A stretch of DNA of 64,000 nucleotides from an uncultured Gemmatimonadota bacterium (GTDB lineage Bacteria > GCA-2686955). The DNA lies in contig CAZBBK010000003.1 in assembly GCA_964490075.1 (NCBI GenBank), positions 62,001-126,000 on the forward strand. The letters are read 5' to 3'. A program made the translations under genes and the position numbers. Under the pieces are notes generated by a model. The model ran no database searches. It was not told the origin of the DNA and worked only from the letters and a program-made list of their open reading frames with translations. Each line of letters begins with the position of its first letter. Position 1 is the stretch's first letter. This document shows positions 45,112 through 62,188 of the stretch, one piece after another.

Positions 45112-45323
45112 TTACCGTCCATGGATTCCCGCCGACTGCGGGGCGCGCGAGGGAAATATGCGAGCGCACGATGTCGCGATAGCATTGCTGGCATTGCTCG
45201 GATCCCTCCACGGGTAGCCGGCAAGACCGCTCCGATGTGCTAGACTTGACTCTCGGGGAAAGCACCCCTTCTCGTAGACTACACAACTGTGTCTTCCTGC
45301 AACGACACTACTGCAGACATGAA

Positions 45324-45470
45324 GTGATTCTGAGTGCCATATCCAACCGGCGCAGCATTCGCAGATACAAGCCCGATGCGGTGGAAGCCGAGAAGATCGC
45401 GGAGCTGATGCCAGGCGTCGCGGCCGATCCTCGATCGGCGCGGCGCGGAGGAGAATACAGTGCCGAATGA
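45324..45470 (+). pseudogene. nitroreductase N-terminal remnant
   Basis: ILSAISNRRSIRRYKPDAVEAEKIAELM matches a nitroreductase start; similarity is lost after about 30 aa and the ORF stops at 45470. Confidence 0.6.
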
Positions 45471-45963
45471 ACCAGAGACTCAGACCACCGCTGCCACACC
45501 GGAGCTACCGGACTCGCTCTTTCGACGGGTCCTCGATGCTCTGCACCACGCGGTGATGGTGGTGGCACCCGACAAGCGAATTCTGTACGCAAACCAGGCG
45601 ATGTGCCAGTACGTCGGCCTGGTCACCGCCAGGGCGTGGACACCCGAGGAGCTCGTGGGAATGGATGTCATGGAATTCCATCCCCCGCCCTCGGTCCAGG
45701 GCACCGAACGCCGCTTCCGATCCATGGCCGGCGCCGGCCACCTCGCTCCACGCACCAACCCCATCGAGGAGCTGATGTTCATGACCTGGGACTCGCGCAT
45801 CCTGGATGCGGACGGCGGCATCGCCGTCTACGTGCTGGAGAAGATCCCCGCCAGCTTCTGCCCCTCGCCGATTCCCGAAAAGAGCATCGACTCCTTGGCG
45901 CAGATCCGGGCGAAGTTCGGCGCCGACGATCCCGCCCTCGGATCTGATCCGGTCCCACGGTAG
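45460..45963 (+). CDS. stand-alone PAS domain protein
   Basis: VLDALHHAVMVV..ILYANQAM..EELVG..FHPP; GGAGG RBS. Confidence 0.8.
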   Translation: MPNEPETQTTAATPELPDSLFRRVLDALHHAVMVVAPDKRILYANQAMCQYVGLVTARAWTPEELVGMDVMEFHPPPSVQGTERRFRSMAGAGHLAPRTNPIEELMFMTWDSRILDADGGIAVYVLEKIPASFCPSPIPEKSIDSLAQIRAKFGADDPALGSDPVPR

Positions 45964-46010
45964 CCGGCAAGCTCGGCACAGTTCGGGCGGGGCTAGGGGT
46001 CTAGAACCGC

Positions 46011-46790
46011 CTATTGGACTCCGTTGCCCTTTTCGAGGATCGCGGCGATCTCGCCCACCAAGCGGACGAAGGGTCCATCGCTGCGCCGCCGCGGCCGGTG
46101 CGGCGTCACTCGAAACACCTTGGCGACGCGGCCCGGCGCCGGCGTCATGACCACGATGCGGTCGGCCAGGTACACCGCTTCGCTGACCGAATGGGTGACG
46201 AATACGATCGATTTCTTGTGCCGCTGCCACACTTCGAGCAGCAGCCTCTGCAACATCTGGCGAGTCATGTCGTCCACCGACCCGAAGGGCTCGTCCATGA
46301 GCAGAATTCTGGGATTGGCGGCGAATGCCCTGGCCACGGCTACCCGTTGCTGCATGCCCCCCGAGAGCTCGTGCGGGTAGCTGTGCGCGAAGCCCTCGAG
46401 CCCGACGTCTCGAGTGTACTCTTGGGCGACGACCATTCGTTTCTCCTTGGCCATCCCTTGCATCCGGGGGCCAAAGGCGACGTTTTCCAGGACCGTCAGC
46501 CACGGAAAGAGCGCGTAGCTCTGGAAAACCATGCCGCGATCGGCCGATGCCGCGCGCACCTGTTCGCCATCAGAACGTAGCGTTCCCGCGCTCGGCGAGT
46601 CCAGACCGGCGATCAGGTTGAGCAGCGTGCTCTTGCCGCATCCCGAGGGCCCCACGACACAGAGGAACTCGCCGGGCTCGACTTGGAGATCGAGTCCCTC
46701 CAGAGCCCGCACCGCCGCCCCGCCGCCGCGGCGCGCGAACACCTTGGCGAGCTTCTCCGCCTGGACCGGGCGCGCTACTTCAGCTTCCAA
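46011..46790 (-). CDS. ABC transporter ATP-binding protein (nitrate/sulfonate/taurine type)
   Basis: GPSGCGKST, LSGGMQQR, LLMDEPF, VTH; TTG start inferred. Confidence 0.95.
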   Translation of the reverse strand: MEAEVARPVQAEKLAKVFARRGGGAAVRALEGLDLQVEPGEFLCVVGPSGCGKSTLLNLIAGLDSPSAGTLRSDGEQVRAASADRGMVFQSYALFPWLTVLENVAFGPRMQGMAKEKRMVVAQEYTRDVGLEGFAHSYPHELSGGMQQRVAVARAFAANPRILLMDEPFGSVDDMTRQMLQRLLLEVWQRHKKSIVFVTHSVSEAVYLADRIVVMTPAPGRVAKVFRVTPHRPRRRSDGPFVRLVGEIAAILEKGNGVQ

Positions 46791-47584
46791 TGCATCGTCC
46801 TGCGCTCGAGGGGATGGAAGAGCAGTCGCTCGGTGAGGAGCATCAGGATTCCGAGCAGCAGCATGCTGAGGATCGTGATCTCGGTTCTGCCCAGGCTGCG
46901 TCCGTCCATCAGCATCATGCCGATCCCGGAAGGAACGCCGACCATCTCGGCGGCTACCACCACGCGCCACGAGATGCCCATTCCGACCCGCAGTCCGCTC
47001 AGCAGGTACGGGATCATCGAAGGGATCATCACGTGCAGCAGAATCTGTCGCCGGCCGGCCCCCAGAGTCAGCGCCGCCTTGACCAGCATCGGTTCCACCG
47101 ACTGCACGCCGGTGATCGTGTTGATGGTCACCGGGAAGAGGGTTCCCACGGTGATGATGAAGATCGCCGCTCCGTTGCCCAGGCCGAACCAGATAATCGC
47201 CAGCGGCACCCACGCCACGCCGGGGATCGGCTGGAAGATGCGTACGAAGGGATCGAAGAAGTCGAAGCAGAAGGGGCTCGATCCCATCACCACACCGAGC
47301 ACCACGCCGATCAGTCCACCCAGAACGAAACCAGCGCCTACACGCAACAGGGTCGTCAGAATGTTGCTGAAGAGCAGCCCCTCCCGCGAGAGCTCGATCC
47401 CGGCCTCGAAGACGGTGCCCGGCGATGGCAGCAGCAGCCTGGCGATGAATGGATCGCGCAGCCCGAAGATGCCGGTCCGCGAGGCGGCCTCCCAGAGACC
47501 GAGAAATGCGACCACGAAGAGCGTGGCTCGGAAGGCGCGGGTCGACAGCGCGCCGCGAACCAGAGCCAGGCCTTTGCTGGTCAT
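46775..47584 (-). CDS. ABC transporter permease (SsuC/TauC type)
   Basis: LPSP, QPIPGVAWVP, EAA-like loop KAALTLGA, VVAAEM. Confidence 0.95.
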   Translation of the reverse strand: MTSKGLALVRGALSTRAFRATLFVVAFLGLWEAASRTGIFGLRDPFIARLLLPSPGTVFEAGIELSREGLLFSNILTTLLRVGAGFVLGGLIGVVLGVVMGSSPFCFDFFDPFVRIFQPIPGVAWVPLAIIWFGLGNGAAIFIITVGTLFPVTINTITGVQSVEPMLVKAALTLGAGRRQILLHVMIPSMIPYLLSGLRVGMGISWRVVVAAEMVGVPSGIGMMLMDGRSLGRTEITILSMLLLGILMLLTERLLFHPLERRTMHWKLK

Positions 47585-48261
47585 TGCAGACAGGCTGCCA
47601 TGCACAGCCCGCAGCGCTTCCTGCCGGGTGTCGACATCTGGTGCTGGCGGCACACCTCCTGCTCCATCAAGCGGCCGATCTCTCGATCGTAGATCGAGCC
47701 CTGCTCACCGACCGGCGGCAGCGCACCGGTCGGACAGGCAGCGACACACTGACCGCAGTCCCGGCAGATCGCTCCGCCCGGAGGTGGGGTGGGCTGCAGC
47801 TCGGCGACCGTGACCACCGTGGCGAGCCGCATCGCGCCGAAGTAGTGCGGCACCAGCAGCAAATTGTTGCGACCGATCTCGCCCAGGCCGGCCGCCCTGG
47901 CCACATGACGGTGCGACAGGCTGCCGATCTTCTTCCGCCAGTGATCGGTGGTCCGGTTCGGGACCCCGACGCTGGCCAGCCCCCGTCCCACCAGCCAGTC
48001 GCTCAGCTCGGTCACGGCCTGGTCGAGTAGAGCGTTGGTCGACCGGAACTCGGCCATGTACTCGTCGCGGGTGTCGGGCAAACGCTCGATCACCCGCAGA
48101 TCGAGCGGCATGGCCAGCGCGATCAGGGACTTCGCCTCCGGCAGCAGGCACGCCGGCCTCTGCACCCAGGGAGCGCCGTCGAGAGCGGCGGCGCGGCAGA
48201 AGCCGTAGTGGCGGACCCCGCATCCCCGGAGACGCTCGCCGATCGCCGCTTCCAGCTCCAT
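47581..48261 (-). CDS. epoxyqueuosine reductase/reductive dehalogenase-like 2x[4Fe-4S] protein
   Basis: LLPEAKSLI, SHRHVARAAGLGEIGRNNLL, RLATVVT, CxxCxxCxxxCP and Cx12CxxCxxxC. Confidence 0.85.
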   Translation of the reverse strand: MELEAAIGERLRGCGVRHYGFCRAAALDGAPWVQRPACLLPEAKSLIALAMPLDLRVIERLPDTRDEYMAEFRSTNALLDQAVTELSDWLVGRGLASVGVPNRTTDHWRKKIGSLSHRHVARAAGLGEIGRNNLLLVPHYFGAMRLATVVTVAELQPTPPPGGAICRDCGQCVAACPTGALPPVGEQGSIYDREIGRLMEQEVCRQHQMSTPGRKRCGLCMAACLQ

Positions 48262-49259
48262 CAGGGGGCCACGAATCCGCTGTAGAAGAACGAGTCCCAC
48301 TCCGGCAGGCTCTCGATGTAGCCGAGGCGTCGGGGCAGATCGATCATCTCCTTGTTGCCCGGGATATCCAGGCGCCAATCGAAGTCCGCGCGGCCGCGCG
48401 CCCGGTCGATGATCTTCTGGTCGAGGCTCATCGCCTTGGCGAGAATCGCGTTGGCTCGGTCGTGTTCGCTGTTGATGAACTCCACGGAGCGCTTGTGGAC
48501 CTCGAAGACCTTGCGAACCGTCTCTGGATGCTCTTGCAGCAGATCCTCTCTGACGATGAGCAAACGGCAGGGATAGTTGGTGCCGCCGTGCGACGCCTTC
48601 CAGACCTTCGGCACATCCATCAGCACCCGGGTGCGATCGCCGAATTCCAGTTCGCATTTCGCGGCGAAAGGCTCCCAGGTCAAGATCGCGTCCACCTCTC
48701 CGCGCACCAGGGCCGCCGGCATGTCCGCCGGGACCATGCCGTAGATCAGTTCGAGGTCGGTGTTCGGATCGAGCCCGGCCACCTGTTCGAGAATGTAGCC
48801 GCGCAGCAGGGACTCGGTGATGGTCCCCTTCCTGGGGGCGGCCAGGCGCTTGCCCTTGAGATCTTCGAGGCGGTCGATCTCGCTGTCCTTGCGCACCACG
48901 ATGATCTGCTCACCGCCGTTGGCGCCGGCGATCGCTCGCACCGGTGCGCCGCGTGTCTTCCACACCGCTGCCGGTACGTTTCCCACCAGAGCGACATTGA
49001 TGTTGCCGGCCGCGAATGCCTCCATGAGACTGGTTCCGTCGCCGAACTTGACGATTTTGATCTTGCTCAGGCCCCCAGCTTCGAAGAAGCCCATGGCCTC
49101 GGATACATAGGGAGTCATGGTTCCGAGACCGCGCACGACGCCGATCTCGATCGGCACGGTCTGCTGCGCGGCGCTGGTCGCTGTGGCGCTCTCCGGTGCG
49201 CCGGCGAGCAGCGCCATGGCGAGTGCCGTGAATGTTGTCGTCAGTCGCAGAGATCTCAT
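48261..49259 (-). CDS. ABC substrate-binding protein (SsuA/NrtA/NMT1-like)
   Basis: signal peptide, DLKGKRLA, GEVDA..WEPF. Confidence 0.92.
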   Translation of the reverse strand: MRSLRLTTTFTALAMALLAGAPESATATSAAQQTVPIEIGVVRGLGTMTPYVSEAMGFFEAGGLSKIKIVKFGDGTSLMEAFAAGNINVALVGNVPAAVWKTRGAPVRAIAGANGGEQIIVVRKDSEIDRLEDLKGKRLAAPRKGTITESLLRGYILEQVAGLDPNTDLELIYGMVPADMPAALVRGEVDAILTWEPFAAKCELEFGDRTRVLMDVPKVWKASHGGTNYPCRLLIVREDLLQEHPETVRKVFEVHKRSVEFINSEHDRANAILAKAMSLDQKIIDRARGRADFDWRLDIPGNKEMIDLPRRLGYIESLPEWDSFFYSGFVAP

Positions 49260-49269
49260 GTCATCCCCC

Positions 49270-50412
49270 TCAGAATGCCAGCTGCATCTGCAGCACGAGT
49301 TCGTCGTTGTCTACGGAGTCGGCCAGCTCTCGCTTGAAAGTGTAGTTGGCCATCAGCTTGACGTTGTGCCCCTGGATGTAGTGATTCAGGCCGAGACTGG
49401 TCCACTCGATGTCTTTGGCTGAGGTCTCGGAATCGTCCGGGTCATAGGTCTGGTAACGAACCAGGGCCTGGAGCTTGTCACCGGCGAATAGCGAGCTGCC
49501 CTGTACGTAGTAGCCACCGGCCACCACGGTCGGATCACCGTCGCTCCGGCCGCTCAGCTCGGCCCGAATGAGCTCACCCTTCAAGGCCCAGCCGCCGAGC
49601 TGGAATGCCGCATCGCCGTTGACGATGGATCGGTCGTAAGGAGCCGAGAAGATGGTGCTGTCCGGGAGATCAGCGCTGGCCAGCTTGCTGGGATCGTCCG
49701 CCGTCCTCTCCCAGGATCCGCCGACTCCCGCCGAGAGCTGCGCCTTGCGTCCACCGATCTCGCCGCGCCAGGCCGTGCCGTCCAGCCGCGCGGTGTAGAT
49801 GAAGTTGTCGTCATCGTTGGCGGCGCGGTTTCTGCCGCCTCCGTTGAAGATGCCGAGGGCGTAATGGGCGCGCTTCGCGAAGGGCTTGCCGTGGACCATG
49901 ACGCCGATCTCGCGGTTGACCCAGGGATTGAAGATCCGGCCCTGGGCGTAGTAGCGTTCGACGAAGTCAAGCTTGGTGATCGGCCGATTCGCCTCGGCGC
50001 CCACCGGCATGCGGAACTGCCCGCAGCTCACCTGGAAAGACTCACGCGGCGTGTAGGCCAGGACGAAGTCGAAGAGCGCACTGTTGAGGTGCGCCGCGTC
50101 CGATCCGGTCCTGCGATCGAGGGCGATCTGGACCAGGTAGTCGAAGTCCTGGAGGACCTCGCCGGAGAGCTTCAAGCGCGCCGCGCGAATCATGAACGAC
50201 GAGGTCTTGGGGGGACCCGAGTCGCTGGCCTCGTGGGTGTAGCGGAACTGGCCGGAGCCGTTGATCGCGAGAGCTCCTCCTTCCAGAAGAGTGGGCTCCT
50301 GGCCGGCGGCCAGGGCCGCGCGCGGGCCCGGCCAAAGATGCGCGCAGAGCACGAGCCCGATGAGTGGGAGGAATCGTCTCTTGTGTGCCGTCAGTGCGAA
50401 GTCGATCGCCAT
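49270..50412 (-). CDS. anion-selective porin (OprO/OprP-like)
   Basis: signal peptide, QFRY, ARLKLSG, GQFRMP, REIG, FNG, C-terminal QMQLAF. Confidence 0.85.
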   Translation of the reverse strand: MAIDFALTAHKRRFLPLIGLVLCAHLWPGPRAALAAGQEPTLLEGGALAINGSGQFRYTHEASDSGPPKTSSFMIRAARLKLSGEVLQDFDYLVQIALDRRTGSDAAHLNSALFDFVLAYTPRESFQVSCGQFRMPVGAEANRPITKLDFVERYYAQGRIFNPWVNREIGVMVHGKPFAKRAHYALGIFNGGGRNRAANDDDNFIYTARLDGTAWRGEIGGRKAQLSAGVGGSWERTADDPSKLASADLPDSTIFSAPYDRSIVNGDAAFQLGGWALKGELIRAELSGRSDGDPTVVAGGYYVQGSSLFAGDKLQALVRYQTYDPDDSETSAKDIEWTSLGLNHYIQGHNVKLMANYTFKRELADSVDNDELVLQMQLAF

Positions 50413-50581
50413 CGGTGTGTCCTTCGTCGACTCCCATGGCGGATTGCCCCGAGGAGTCCGGTGGAGGTTGGGTTCGCCGAGTGGGCGCGCCGCACGGAGA
50501 CGATGATCCGCCGGCGTGGCCTGAGCAGGACAGAATGCTGGGTCGAGGGCGGACCCGCCACGACCGCGATCAGCGGCACCG

Positions 50582-50595
50582 GTGATATTTGTCAA
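50582..50595 (-). promoter_or_regulatory. FNR/Crp-family binding box
   Basis: TTGAC-AAAT-ATCAC (FNR consensus TTGAT-N4-ATCAA) between the Crp/Fnr gene and the porin operon. Confidence 0.7.
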
Positions 50596-50613
50596 CGCGG
50601 ATCGAGATACTCG

Positions 50614-51312
50614 TCAGCCGGTCGCCAGCAGCATGCGCCGCAGCGCATCGGGCTCCAGCACCCGGATCGCCCTGCCCTCGGTCTCGATCAGACCCCGCGA
50701 CACGAACTGGGTCAGCAGGCGGATCAGTGTCTCTTTCGCCATGCCCAGGGTGTCGGCCAATTCCTGGCGCGACAGGCCCGCGGAACCGTTGCCTGGATCG
50801 GAGTGAGAGAGATCGGTCGAGAGCAGGAGCGCCGCCAGCCGCTGGCGCCCCGAGTAGGTCCCCAGGCGCAGCGCGGTCCGCTCCAGATCATCGATGCGAT
50901 GCGAGAGCAGCGAGACCACACCGACCGCCACGTCGGGGGAGCGGCGCATCAGGCCGTCGATCTCGTCGCGGGTCGCCATGCAGAGCTCGACCGGGGTGAT
51001 CGCCTCCGCCGTGCACTGGCAGGGGGCGCCGCGCAGCGATTCACAGCCGAGCAGGAATCCCGGTCCGACCACGCCGAGCACCTGGGTGCGCCCGTTCGGA
51101 CCGATCTTGGAGAGCTTGACCAGGCCCTTGCGGACCGAGGCCACCTGGTCACAGGGATTGCCCTCCAGGAAGGCGCGGTGCCGGGCCGGAAAGCGGTGCA
51201 TGGTCATGCCGCAGGAAAGGTCGGCGAAGACCTCCTCGGGCACGCCGGCGAGCACCCCTTCGCTGCGCATCACACAGTCGTCGCAGCGCCGGATCTCGAC
51301 CTTGGTGCTCAT
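50614..51312 (-). CDS. Crp/Fnr family transcriptional regulator, Cys-rich
   Basis: cNMP-binding fold (GLVKL..GRTQVL..PG), HTH LSRQELADTLGMAKETLIR, N-terminal CDDC. Confidence 0.93.
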   Translation of the reverse strand: MSTKVEIRRCDDCVMRSEGVLAGVPEEVFADLSCGMTMHRFPARHRAFLEGNPCDQVASVRKGLVKLSKIGPNGRTQVLGVVGPGFLLGCESLRGAPCQCTAEAITPVELCMATRDEIDGLMRRSPDVAVGVVSLLSHRIDDLERTALRLGTYSGRQRLAALLLSTDLSHSDPGNGSAGLSRQELADTLGMAKETLIRLLTQFVSRGLIETEGRAIRVLEPDALRRMLLATG

Positions 51313-51480
51313 CTCTGGGCCCTTCGACCGCACCGGCGTCTGGCTCGATCGCGGCGCGGCGGAACATGGTTGGCGGGCAGGCGCCTAGGATGGCCGGGGT
51401 CCCCCCGGGGCCCTCACCAGCCAAGGATAGCGTACCGCTCGATCGCCTGCGCCCTTCCGAGCAGCTAGACTACGCGCCTC

Positions 51481-52284
51481 ATGCTCACCTTCCGCAGCAC
51501 ACTCGAGTACCAGGGCAGCGATTTCAGCGGCTGGCAGCGCCAGCCGGAACGCCGGACCGTGCAGGGCGAGCTGGAGCGAGCGCTGGCCCTGCTCTGCCGG
51601 ACACCGGTGGCGGTCACCGCCGCGGGGCGCACCGACGCCGGAGTCCACGCCACCGGCCAGGTGGTGAGCTTCCGCCTGGAGAGCCTGCCCTGGGGGCGAG
51701 GGCCCGAGCCCTTCGCGAGCGACCTGGCGTACCGCTTGAATCGGCTCCTTCCCGACGATATCGCGATCCGAGAGCTATGTCCGGCCGCCCCCGGCTTCCA
51801 TGCCCGCCACGATGCGCTCATCCGCAGCTATCGCTATTCCATTCGCCACCGCCGCCACCCATTGAGTCGCCATCTGAGCTGGCTCGTTCGCTATGAACTA
51901 GATCTTGCGCAGATGAACGAGACGGTCTCTATCATCAAGAAATATGAGGACTTCAAGGCATTTACTCGAGCAGAGCTAGAGCTCCCCTCCTTCCGCGTCG
52001 ATCTGGGCCGGCTCGACCTGTTCGCGGTCGAGGAGGGGCTCGACATCGTCGTCAGCGCGCGCCGCTTTCTGCACAATATGATCCGTATCCTGGCCGGGAC
52101 CTTGGTCGACGTCGGACGCGGCCATCTCAGCCCGGCGCAGGTCGAGCAGGCGCTACGCGCGCGCGACCGGCGCCTCGCAGGCCCCACGGCACCGGCCCAC
52201 GGGCTCTGCTTCGAGCGCGTCGACTATCCTGGTGAAGGCGCGTCCCCGGCCCCGCGGCGAAACACCTCTACCCAAAGCCCCTGA
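51481..52284 (+). CDS. truA: tRNA pseudouridine(38-40) synthase
   Basis: [28 protein letters not shown]. Confidence 0.97.
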
Positions 52285-52297
52285 AAGGGCACCGCAC

Positions 52298-52957
52298 ATG
52301 AAGCTGTTCATCGATACCGCCAACACCGAAGAGATCCGCGCCGCCGCCGGCCTGGGACTGCTCGACGGCGCGACCACCAACCCGAGTCTCCTGGCCAAGG
52401 AGATCGAACGCCGCGGCGGCGGCACCCAGGACGAGATCTTCAAAGAGATCTGCGAGCTGGTTCCGGGCCCGGTGTCGGCCGAGGTGATCGCCACCGACTA
52501 CGAGGGCATGGTCCGCCAGGGCCGGGAGGTGGCCACGCTGGCCCCCAACGTGGTGGTGAAATGCCCCCTGACCGAAGATGGGCTGCGCGCCACCCGTACT
52601 CTCTCCGAAGAGGGGATCTCCGTGAACGCCACCCTGATCTTCCAGCCGATCCAGGCGCTGCTGGCGGCAAAAGCCGGCGCGGCCTACGTGTCGCCCTTCG
52701 TCGGCCGCCTCGACGACATCTCCACCACCGGCATGGCGGCGGTGCAGGAGATCGTCGAGATTTACAGCAACTATGCCTTCTCCACCGAGGTGATCGTGGC
52801 GTCGGTGCGCAACCCGATCCACGTGGTCGACGCCGCGCGCATGGGCGCCGACGTCGCCACCATCCCCTACGCGGTCATCAAGCAGCTCGTGAAGCATCCC
52901 TTGACCGACATCGGGCTGGCTCGCTTCGTCGCCGACGCAGCCAAGTACTCGAGCTGA
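52298..52957 (+). CDS. tal: transaldolase / fructose-6-phosphate aldolase (short type)
   Basis: [29 protein letters not shown]. Confidence 0.93.
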
Positions 52958-60785: not shown

Positions 60786-62188
60786 TCGAGTCGCAGCTCT
60801 GGAGCCACGAGTGCGGGGTGTTCGGCGTGGTCGGACATCCCCGCGCCGCCGAGCTCGCCTACCTCGGCCTCTACGCGCTGCAGCACCGCGGCCAGGAGGC
60901 GGCCGGCATCGCCGCCTTCGACGGACGGCGTTACCGCGAGCACAAACGTCTAGGGCTGGTGAACGACGTCTTCGATCCGGCGACTCTGGCGGGCCTGGAA
61001 GGCAGCAGCGCGATCGGTCATGCCCGCTACTCCACGACCGGCTCCACCGCCCTGCCCAATGTGCAGCCCCTGGTCGCCAATCTGCAGCACCAGGCGGTCG
61101 CCCTGGCCCACAACGGCAACATCGTCGACGCCCGCATCATCCGCTCCGGGCTCGAAGACGGCGGCGCGATCTTCCAGACTTCGATGGACTCGGAGGTGGT
61201 GCTGCACCTGATGGCCCGTTCGCGACACCGCGAAACCGAGCGCCAACTGGCCGACGCCCTGGACCGCATCCACGGCGCTCATTCGCTGGTGCTGCTGAGC
61301 GGCGAGACCCTGCTCGCGGCCAAGGATCCGCGTGGCATTCGCCCCCTGTGCATCGGCGAGCTCGCGGGAGGGGCGCGCATCGTCGCCAGCGAAAGCTGCG
61401 CGCTCGACATCGTCGACGCCTCTTTCATGCGCGAGCTCGAACCGGGCGAGATCGTCCGCCTCCAACCGGGGCGCCCGCCGGTGACGGTGCGCCGCTCGCC
61501 GGAGGGCGAGCAGGCCGCCTGCATCTTCGAGGCGATCTATTTCACGCGTCCCGACTCGGTCCTCTTCGGGCGCACCACCGGTGCCGCCCGGGTCGATCTG
61601 GGCCGCCAGCTGGCGCGCGAGGCGCCCGCGCCCGGAGCAGAGGTCGTGATCAGCGTTCCCGACTCCTCCAACGCCGCCGCCCAGGGCTACGCCGAGGAGT
61701 CGGGCATCCCCTTGGGGCATGGCTTGATCCGCAACCACTATGTCGGCCGCACCTTTATCAAGCCGGCACAGAAGATCCGCGATCTCTCGGCGCGCATCAA
61801 GTACAACCCGGTGCGCGACGTGGTGCGGGGCCGCAGCGTGGTGGTGGTCGACGACTCGATCGTGCGCGGCACCACGGTGCGCAAGCTGGTGGCGATGCTG
61901 CGCTCCGCCGGGGCCCGCGAGGTTCACTTTCGAGTCTCCTCCTCGCCGATCGTGGGCCCCTGCTACTACGGCATCGACACGCCGGACGAGAACGAGCTGA
62001 TCGGTGCCCTCCATGGAATCGCCGAGATCGAGCGCATGGTGGGTGCCGACACTTTGCGCTACCTGTCGATCGAGGGCATGAAGAGGGCGATCGCAGCCGC
62101 GGGGGGGCTGTGCACCGCCTGCTTCGACCGCCACTACCCCGTGCCGATCGTGGAGCCGCTCGAGAAGGGGATTCTCGAGCGCAGCTGA
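60782..62188 (+). CDS. purF: amidophosphoribosyltransferase ([4Fe-4S], propeptide type)
   Basis: ECGVFG, QHRGQE, VVDDSIVRGTT, CIFE / PCYYG / CTAC. Confidence 0.98.
   Translation: MIESQLWSHECGVFGVVGHPRAAELAYLGLYALQHRGQEAAGIAAFDGRRYREHKRLGLVNDVFDPATLAGLEGSSAIGHARYSTTGSTALPNVQPLVANLQHQAVALAHNGNIVDARIIRSGLEDGGAIFQTSMDSEVVLHLMARSRHRETERQLADALDRIHGAHSLVLLSGETLLAAKDPRGIRPLCIGELAGGARIVASESCALDIVDASFMRELEPGEIVRLQPGRPPVTVRRSPEGEQAACIFEAIYFTRPDSVLFGRTTGAARVDLGRQLAREAPAPGAEVVISVPDSSNAAAQGYAEESGIPLGHGLIRNHYVGRTFIKPAQKIRDLSARIKYNPVRDVVRGRSVVVVDDSIVRGTTVRKLVAMLRSAGAREVHFRVSSSPIVGPCYYGIDTPDENELIGALHGIAEIERMVGADTLRYLSIEGMKRAIAAAGGLCTACFDRHYPVPIVEPLEKGILERS

Follow-up and report, generated by a model that had tools for sequence, protein, structure and literature searches.

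We analysed a gene cluster of an uncultured Gemmatimonadota bacterium in which a small iron-sulfur (Fe-S) protein is encoded between the subunits of an ABC importer. The cluster lies in a stretch of 64,000 nucleotides that we call the window (positions 62,001 to 126,000 of contig CAZBBK010000003.1, assembly GCA_964490075.1). Six co-oriented minus-strand genes code for a Crp/Fnr-family regulator, an outer-membrane porin, a periplasmic substrate-binding protein (SBP), the Fe-S protein, and the permease and ATPase of the importer (Table 1). An earlier note on this DNA, made from the letters alone, had described these genes with their gap and overlaps, and the coordinates and junctions that it gave match the sequence.

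Table 1. Features of the gene cluster, with positions in the window
Feature	Position	Strand	Remarks
Crp/Fnr-family regulator	50614-51312	minus	232 aa, cNMP-binding-like and HTH_Crp_2 domains
Candidate Crp/Fnr-type site TTGACAAATATCAC	50595-50582	minus	in the 201-nt regulator/porin spacer
Porin_O_P outer-membrane porin	49270-50412	minus	380 aa
NMT1/SsuA/TauA/NrtA-type periplasmic SBP	48261-49259	minus	332 aa
Fe-S protein, QueG/reductive-dehalogenase fold (class III corrinoid enzyme)	47581-48261	minus	226 aa, cytoplasmic
NitT/TauT-family ABC importer permease	46775-47584	minus	269 aa
ABC importer ATPase	46011-46790	minus	259 aa, TTG start

Reading the junctions from the sequence, we found that the TGA stop codon of the porin gene is followed by a 10-nt gap containing GGGGGA and then by the ATG codon of the SBP gene. 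The SBP and Fe-S genes overlap in TGATG, and the Fe-S and permease genes in ATGA. The permease and ATPase genes overlap by 16 nt if the latter starts at TTG 46790, with AGGA 7 nt 5' of that TTG. Starting instead at GTG 46742, the ATPase gene would follow the permease gene after a gap of 32 nt and with a poorer ribosome-binding site than at TTG 46790. The Fe-S gene is translationally coupled within the transporter operon, and the earlier note was right to place the enzyme inside it. In run X2, from another sample of the same study, contigs with zero differences span the SBP/Fe-S (48057-48408) and Fe-S/permease (47224-47661) junctions. Since both junctions of the Fe-S gene are bridged in this way, its embedding does not stem from faulty assembly. 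A homologue with 50% identity at E 1e-65 and a structural model with a mean pLDDT of 90.9 show that the Fe-S ORF is a real gene. The flanking genes are plus-strand housekeeping genes, namely truA, those of a transaldolase and HtrA on one side and that of a small PAS protein on the other, which makes the cluster a discrete unit. The locus was found in four DNA runs, all marine and all from one study, and no RNA run was among those listed as carrying it.

The Fe-S protein contains eight cysteines arranged in two [4Fe-4S] motifs (C166/169/172/176 and C204/217/220/224), which are conserved across 35 aligned relatives. Its nearest solved structures in a phmmer search of the PDB are QueG (5d08, E 4.7e-12) and then the reductive dehalogenase (RdhA) PceA. 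Foldseek comparisons of the AlphaFold2 model returned QueG, PceA and NpRdhA at probability 1.0 (query TM-score, TMq, 0.57-0.75), with values of 0.73-0.75 for PceA and 0.72 for NpRdhA (rmsd 3.7); the B12 chaperones CblC and CblD gave weaker matches. Its first 160 residues adopt the fold that binds substrate and corrinoid in QueG and RdhA, unlike a plain ferredoxin. Two [4Fe-4S] motifs following such a CblC-like corrinoid-binding fold define the QueG/RdhA superfamily, and the Fe-S protein has this combination. Binding of a base-off corrinoid, a further feature of the superfamily, is not tied to any one sequence motif. An hhalign comparison with a canonical QueG yielded a probability of 99.9, the match ending at template position 255 of 375.

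The earlier note had spoken of a QueG- or reductive dehalogenase-like enzyme. This description holds for the fold and the two four-cysteine motifs, but not for membership, as the scores, motifs and domains indicate that the protein belongs to neither QueG nor RdhA as named families. Its best NCBIfam match, TIGR02486 (RDH), scores 46.2 bits against a cut-off of 160.35, and TIGR00276 (QueG) scores 40.6 bits against a cut-off of 200 and covers only residues 112-182. With QueG (TIGR00276; 5d08 and 5d6s), the Fe-S protein has in common the corrinoid-binding and 2x[4Fe-4S] ferredoxin fold and the motif around GLG.IG.N. QueG proteins are about 350-380 aa long with DUF1730, HEAT, a D-Y-H motif and a catalytic Asp, whereas the window protein, at 226 aa, lacks all four. 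Pfam scans detected in it neither the N-terminal DUF1730 region (PF08331) nor the C-terminal HEAT domain, and the polypeptide ends two residues past the last cluster cysteine. For QueG, the part of PMC4646009 available to us describes a strictly conserved D-Y-H motif and catalytic Asp (D100-Y101-H102 and D130 of the S. thermophilus enzyme). The corresponding columns, D102, Y103, H104 and D132, are invariant in 12 of the 12 canonical QueGs that we aligned. The Fe-S protein has R73-S74-T75 and K111 instead, in the profile-profile alignment with hhalign and also in the phmmer alignment.

With PceA and NpRdhA/BhbA (TIGR02486), the window protein has in common the class III corrinoid fold and two [4Fe-4S] clusters, and NpRdhA is also cytoplasmic. 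Characterised RdhAs are twice its size, and it has no Tat signal, RdhB or reductase module. Neither a twin-arginine (Tat) nor a Sec signal is visible at its N-terminus (MELEAAIGERL), no RdhB anchor gene lies beside its gene, whose neighbours code for the SBP and the permease, and no reductase module is fused to it. Complex predictions of the Fe-S protein with the permease or the ATPase scored 0.00 relative to a mark of 0.32; they were run without controls and provide no evidence either way.

Another contig of the same genome encodes a canonical QueG of 350 aa that includes HEAT repeats, and therefore the embedded Fe-S protein is not the housekeeping enzyme. The genome also codes for a third QueG-like paralogue of 255 aa, with no Pfam match and an atypical cysteine pattern (locus L003, G000:C58, 1267-2034, minus strand), which adjoins a methyltransferase-like ORF and a cation-efflux-like ORF.

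A search of 1.84 billion representative sequences revealed 2,796 relatives of the Fe-S protein at E<=1e-3, 403 at E<=1e-10 and three at E<=1e-30, one of which is the protein itself. The single close homologue, P0002 (50% identity), is encoded on a metagenome contig of 2,041 bp. We analysed the genetic environments of the best 80 of 589 relatives in a genome collection, of at least 32 metagenome loci with a tblastn match (of at least 34 listed), and of 11 further loci from related genomes, the last reaching 1.5 kb per side. The P0002 contig lies outside all of these 123 loci. Short, HEAT-less proteins of the QueG/RdhA fold, of about 220-240 aa, form a large, uncharacterised family, and in 38 of the 80 genome loci their genes are directly 3' of mnmG, on the same strand and within 1.5 kb. 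The ten upstream ORFs that were tested all code for GIDA/MnmG. These mnmG-linked loci (L013, L016, L022, L026, L034, L043, L048, L055, L073, L083 and 28 more) belong to Omnitrophota, WOR-3, Elusimicrobiota, Planctomycetota and others. The mnmG-linked short family may represent an undescribed tRNA-related enzyme. We considered whether it serves as the epoxyqueuosine reductase of genomes without QueG. Five of five genomes with a short homologue have QueA and QueH, and in none of them does a canonical QueG score over the cut-off. As QueH is present in all five, no missing reductase needs explaining, and we rejected this candidate. Many other relatives are 725-836 aa long (P0201, P0203, P0205, P0208 and about 30 others) and match the query in two stretches, which suggests multi-domain proteins in which the short QueG/RdhA-like unit is fused or occurs in tandem.

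We built a maximum-likelihood tree of 122 rows from the window protein, 11 selected proteins of the database and every locus ORF of 180-300 aa without stops, others being left out. The search was quick and the branches are long, so that the deep order of the tree is unsure. One 84-row clade (SH-aLRT 95) contains all 40 mnmG-linked rows. P0002 is the sister of the window protein (SH-aLRT 100), and both belong to a separate 18-row group (SH-aLRT 90), the genetic neighbours of which code for small-molecule enzymes such as amidohydrolases, beta-oxidation enzymes, sugar kinases and glycosidases, and not for tRNA-related functions. An Amidohydro_2 gene lies directly downstream in four archaeal loci (L004, L006, L007 and L031), Amidohydro_1 genes lie beside L004, L006 and L008, and beta-oxidation genes beside L005. 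L098, L106 and L118 adjoin genes for a sugar kinase, a glycosidase with LacI, and an AMP-ligase. The archaeal relatives nearest to the window protein (34-38% identity; L004, L006, L007, L008 and L031, from Hadarchaeota and Methanobacteriota metagenome-assembled genomes) are found between Amidohydro_1 and Amidohydro_2 genes, a conserved small-molecule context.

The SBP matches Pfam NMT1 with 73.1 bits and TIGR01728 (SsuA_fam) with 153 bits, relative to a cut-off of 163.5. Its AlphaFold2 model (pLDDT 91.7) has E. coli SsuA as the best fold match (2x26, TMq 0.76), followed by TauA, Xanthomonas SsuA, the PQQ-binding PqqT and the pyrimidine-binding ThiY. The N-terminus of the SBP is signal-peptide-like, with no lipobox cysteine. 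The permease was identified by Pfam BPD_transp_1 (86.2 bits) and scores 126.5 bits with the NCBIfam model of SsuC and 128.6 with that of TauC (cut-offs 347 and 342), and the ATPase by Pfam ABC_tran (117 bits), with a TauB score of 248 (cut-off 357). Identities to E. coli proteins are 28% for the SBP with SsuA, 31% for the permease with SsuC and 42% for the ATPase with SsuB. On these sequence features, the three proteins encoded in one operon are assigned to an SBP-dependent importer of the nitrate/sulfonate/taurine (NitT/TauT) family. The Pfam families, the SsuA/TauA fold and the homology to SsuA, SsuC and SsuB agree with the SsuABC/NrtABD type proposed in the earlier note, and none of the three subunits reaches an Ssu or Tau equivalog-level cut-off.

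The identification of an OprO/P porin also proved correct. The porin matches Porin_O_P (PF07396) with 74.3 bits against a cut-off of 20.9, over profile positions 17-367 of 370, and it has a signal-peptide-like N-terminus. Porins of this type are known for small inorganic anions. The ExtI porin of a Geobacter selenite/tellurite reduction operon is likewise encoded with a dedicated reduction system, but the window cluster lacks the cytochromes and the rhodanese-like lipoprotein of that operon. With 54.5 bits for a cut-off of 150, the porin is not a member of the NCBIfam ExtI family (NF040900).

The earlier note did not recognise the arrangement as a described system, but the layout does have a precedent. 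In the E. coli ssuEADCB operon, the order ssuA-ssuD-ssuC-ssuB is exactly that of the SBP, enzyme, permease and ATPase genes of the window, and 4-nt overlaps occur in E. coli too. The cluster thus has an architecture of a known kind with the enzyme exchanged. SsuD is a luciferase-like FMNH2 monooxygenase, whereas its slot in the window is occupied by a non-homologous Fe-S protein of the QueG/RdhA fold. The window cluster furthermore lacks the SsuE flavin reductase and has a dedicated porin and a Crp/Fnr-family regulator in addition. No SsuD/SsuE or TauD companion oxygenase was found in 45200-52300, the only part of the genome searched for them. In the accessible parts of the literature, supplements not included, we found no report of a NitT/TauT importer operon with a QueG/RdhA-like gene inside it. 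The novelty lies in the kind of enzyme that occupies an Ssu-like layout, and the combination is so far a singleton, from one genome.

We also considered the selenocysteine-assisted organometallic (SAO) system, an ABC system for which the available part of 10.1101/2022.07.06.499078 lists the companions SaoL, SaoB, SaoE, SaoT and SaoC. SaoA, SaoP and SaoX belong to the same broad nitrate/sulfonate/taurine ABC group as the importer of the window, and SaoP is the best NCBIfam match of the permease. We rejected this assignment, as the scores are too low (164.7 for a cut-off of 295, 240.8 for 360 and 66.1 for 300) and the companion genes are missing. Unlike SAO, the window cluster has no MerB-like lyase, second SBP or efflux pump, and it needs no in-frame TGA.

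The regulator matches Pfam HTH_Crp_2 (57.1 bits) and cNMP_binding (54.9 bits), and its best PDB match is M. tuberculosis Crp (68 bits). Its best NCBIfam scores, with FnrL (71 bits) and FixK (68 bits), are both far under the cut-offs of 300, and the Fnr model PRK11161 gives 49.9 bits for a cut-off of 228. The regulator has cysteines at positions 10, 13, 34, 54, 90, 98, 100 and 111. In an alignment with E. coli FNR, C10, C13 and C111 correspond to C20, C23 and C122, and C29 is unmatched, so that three of the four cluster cysteines are present; a fourth cluster ligand other than Cys is conceivable. The recognition helix reads E..IR, compared with E..SR in E. coli FNR. The label 'Fnr-like' of the earlier note is therefore apt for the Crp/Fnr family and for three cysteines, but neither the C29 counterpart nor the score follows. 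Residues 90-100 align with the cAMP phosphate-binding loop of the mycobacterial Crp, where the regulator has C90, C98 and C100 and lacks the Arg of that Crp; cAMP is an unlikely effector, judging from these residues.

The FNR-type box noted earlier does exist. The site TTGACAAATATCAC, about 176 nt 5' of the porin ATG, has two mismatches to the FNR consensus TTGAT-N4-ATCAA. The window contains 20 matches of equal quality, compared with 5.7 expected from shuffles, and at the window's own rate the chance of one such match in the spacer is ~0.06. We therefore regard the box as suggestive only. It could equally be read as a -35-like TTGACA hexamer. No sigma-70-like promoter was found in 45200-51600 and no terminator of note, nor was there a riboswitch, structured leader or Rfam family in 45800-51700, where a single sRNA match was sub-threshold (E 0.3). 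The regulator/porin spacer folds no better than shuffled sequences (z -0.04).

The SBP has 15 relatives at 37-42% identity (P0103-P0117, on contigs of up to 114 kb). Among sampled genomes, an orthologous transporter was found in none of the 12 from the phylum of genome G062, in one of the 401 from the phylum of G064, and in none of 400 other genomes of a broad sample. The single instance, in genome G199 of another phylum (L137, G199:C5, 3020-10508), has the order TonB-dependent-type barrel, PGA_cap protein, ATPase, SBP and permease, the permease being 52% identical to that of the window. The barrel is of the CarboxypepD_reg/TonB-dependent type, the PGA_cap protein is CapA-like, and genes for a sulfatase and a triple-rhodanese protein flank the locus. 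These neighbours hint at organosulfur scavenging for this transporter clade.

From the gene set, the coupling, the folds and the family placements, we infer import of an anion and catalysis on the imported compound. The reading that we favour, with a confidence that we would put at about even, is the regulated uptake of a small anion followed by its reduction in the cytoplasm by the Fe-S protein. The compound would pass the outer membrane through the anion-selective OprO/P-type porin, be captured by the SsuA-like SBP in the periplasm, and be moved to the cytoplasm by the NitT/TauT-type importer. There, it would be reduced by the 226-aa Fe-S protein, the synthesis of which is coupled to that of the transporter subunits. 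This chemistry would most likely be the cleavage of a carbon-heteroatom bond, be it C-halogen, epoxide C-O or C-S. The O2-dependent monooxygenase of the ssu layout would thereby be replaced by an oxygen-independent reductase. The Fe-S protein probably holds a corrinoid beside its two [4Fe-4S] clusters, and the upstream Crp/Fnr-family regulator probably controls the operon. In favour of this reading are the translational coupling, the fold, the presence of a separate housekeeping QueG, the place of the protein in a non-tRNA clade, the ssu-like gene order and the SsuA-like SBP. Further points are the vicinity of the G199 transporter to the sulfatase and triple-rhodanese genes, and a near-threshold cobalamin riboswitch in the genome of the window (30.1 bits, threshold 31.5). 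The redox-regulated import and reduction module imagined in the earlier note is partly supported. It is weakened in that the linkage of the genes is not conserved in the loci compared and that the regulator is Fnr-like only in part.

The window protein belongs to a large uncharacterised short branch and is wired into an importer at the slot of an O2-dependent desulfonating enzyme. To our knowledge, the only established reactions of QueG/RdhA-fold enzymes are reductive dehalogenation and epoxyqueuosine reduction. The SBP ligand should be the substrate of the enzyme or a precursor of it, and therefore screening for this ligand could bring to light a third type of reaction in the enzyme class. 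Should a sulfonate or a haloacid be the substrate, the system would matter for the cycling of sulfur or halogens in the sea at low oxygen, with the proviso that it is found in one genome only. A specific form of this reading, which we consider unlikely, is that the cluster is an oxygen-independent counterpart of Ssu. A miniature corrinoid/[4Fe-4S] reductase in the place of SsuD would then reductively cleave the C-S bond, or some other carbon-heteroatom bond, of a small organic anion brought in by the importer, for instance an aliphatic sulfonate. Were this true, class III cobalamin chemistry would extend to a new bond type beyond C-halogen bonds and the epoxide of epoxyqueuosine, and anaerobes or microaerobes would gain a route into the marine sulfonate pool.

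Several observations weigh against uptake coupled to reduction. Linkage of the Fe-S gene to this ABC clade in other genomes, the lack of which would count as a refutation according to the earlier note, was not detected in the loci compared. In tblastn searches with the SBP and the permease (E<=1e-5), neither was found near a Fe-S homologue in the 80 best genome loci, the 32 listed metagenome loci or the 11 loci of related genomes (0 of 123 altogether, the P0002 contig being outside this set). Some ABC ATPase is encoded in four of the 80 genome loci, but no closer than 2.4 kb. Conversely, the orthologous transporter locus of G199 has no Fe-S gene, the PGA_cap protein and the TonB-dependent-type barrel replacing the Fe-S protein and the porin. 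The GTDB phylum of the window comprises five genomes, and neither the Fe-S nor the SBP orthologue was found in the four others, three of the same family (83-84% complete) and one of the same class (95% complete). Adjacency in a single genome is weak evidence of a shared pathway. As the catalytic motifs of QueG are absent, the chemistry of the Fe-S protein cannot be read from that enzyme. The FNR-type site is weak, and CobS was not found in the genome. Lastly, the proteins of the cluster are not sulfur-poor, with 4.9% Cys in the Fe-S protein and 3.0% Met in the SBP, a composition that argues against a role in scavenging under sulfur starvation.

A sub-case of the favoured reading, which we hold to be unlikely, is that the Fe-S protein is a compact catabolic reductive dehalogenase. 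An imported halogenated organic acid, for example a haloacetate, a halopropionate or a halogenated hydroxybenzoate of marine algae, would then be dehalogenated in the cytoplasm, as by NpRdhA/BhbA. The Fe-S protein is cytoplasmic with no Tat signal, like the catabolic RdhAs, TIGR02486 is its best NCBIfam match, and PceA and NpRdhA are close to it in fold. The locus comes from marine runs, and marine Roseobacter debrominases as well as BhbA act on brominated hydroxybenzoates, according to the accessible part of PMC13101508. Nevertheless, the RDH score is far under its cut-off, and 226 residues amount to half of any characterised RdhA. The inorganic anions for which OprO/P porins are known do not fit this proposal well either. 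No downstream catabolic genes are present in the cluster, and no homologue context ties the clade to halogen metabolism.

Just as unlikely, in our estimation, is that the Fe-S gene is unrelated to the cargo and, as would hold for most of its family, is a housekeeping gene, perhaps tRNA-related, lodged in an ordinary importer operon of the sulfonate/taurine type. The frequent proximity of mnmG to genes of the family, with all ten tested upstream ORFs being MnmG, is consistent with this possibility, as is the fact that no other examined locus joins the family to this ABC type. Moreover, truA, coding for a tRNA pseudouridine synthase, is found just upstream of the cluster on the opposite strand. 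However, the window protein is outside the mnmG-linked clade, and the genome has its canonical QueG. The start/stop overlaps on both sides of the gene are also unlike a recent passive insertion.

We regard as improbable that the Fe-S protein is an accessory of the importer that senses redox conditions or donates electrons, for instance to switch uptake on only under reducing conditions. The position of its gene between those of the transporter subunits, the translational coupling, the two predicted low-potential clusters and the FNR-like cysteines of the upstream regulator would agree with such a function. Against it, the N-terminal 160 residues have the QueG/RdhA substrate- and corrinoid-binding fold rather than that of a plain ferredoxin, and we know of no ABC importer of the NitT/TauT family with such an Fe-S subunit.

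A role in the salvage of queuosine precursors appears highly improbable. Free epoxyqueuine or epoxyqueuosine would be imported, and the HEAT-less QueG-like enzyme would reduce it to queuine or queuosine. No solved structure is closer in sequence than that of QueG, the missing HEAT domain is the one that binds tRNA, and SBPs of this fold also bind heterocycles, as do ThiY and PqqT. However, the window protein retains neither the D-Y-H motif nor the catalytic Asp, with K111 at the position of the latter, and the part of a survey of queuosine-precursor transporters that we could access (PMC11130926) does not report this ABC type. Import of a corrinoid and its processing by a CblC-like enzyme, suggested by the fold matches to CblC and CblD, was rejected on general grounds, since a corrinoid of 1.3 kDa is a poor fit for an OprO/P-type porin and for a type I NitT/TauT importer.

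A nitroreductase-like N-terminal fragment that we suspected at 45237-45470 had no Pfam match and was not retained. Elsewhere in the lineage, two of the same-family genomes harbour a porin paralogue (39% identity) followed by a gene coding for an NMT1-type SBP-like protein (L134, G002:C149, 6108-9927; L132/L135, G003:C498). The G002 locus continues with genes for a HAMP-PAS-HisKA sensor and for hybrid kinase/response-regulator proteins. Based on these loci, the lineage pairs OprO/P-type porins with proteins of the SBP fold for signalling as well as for transport.

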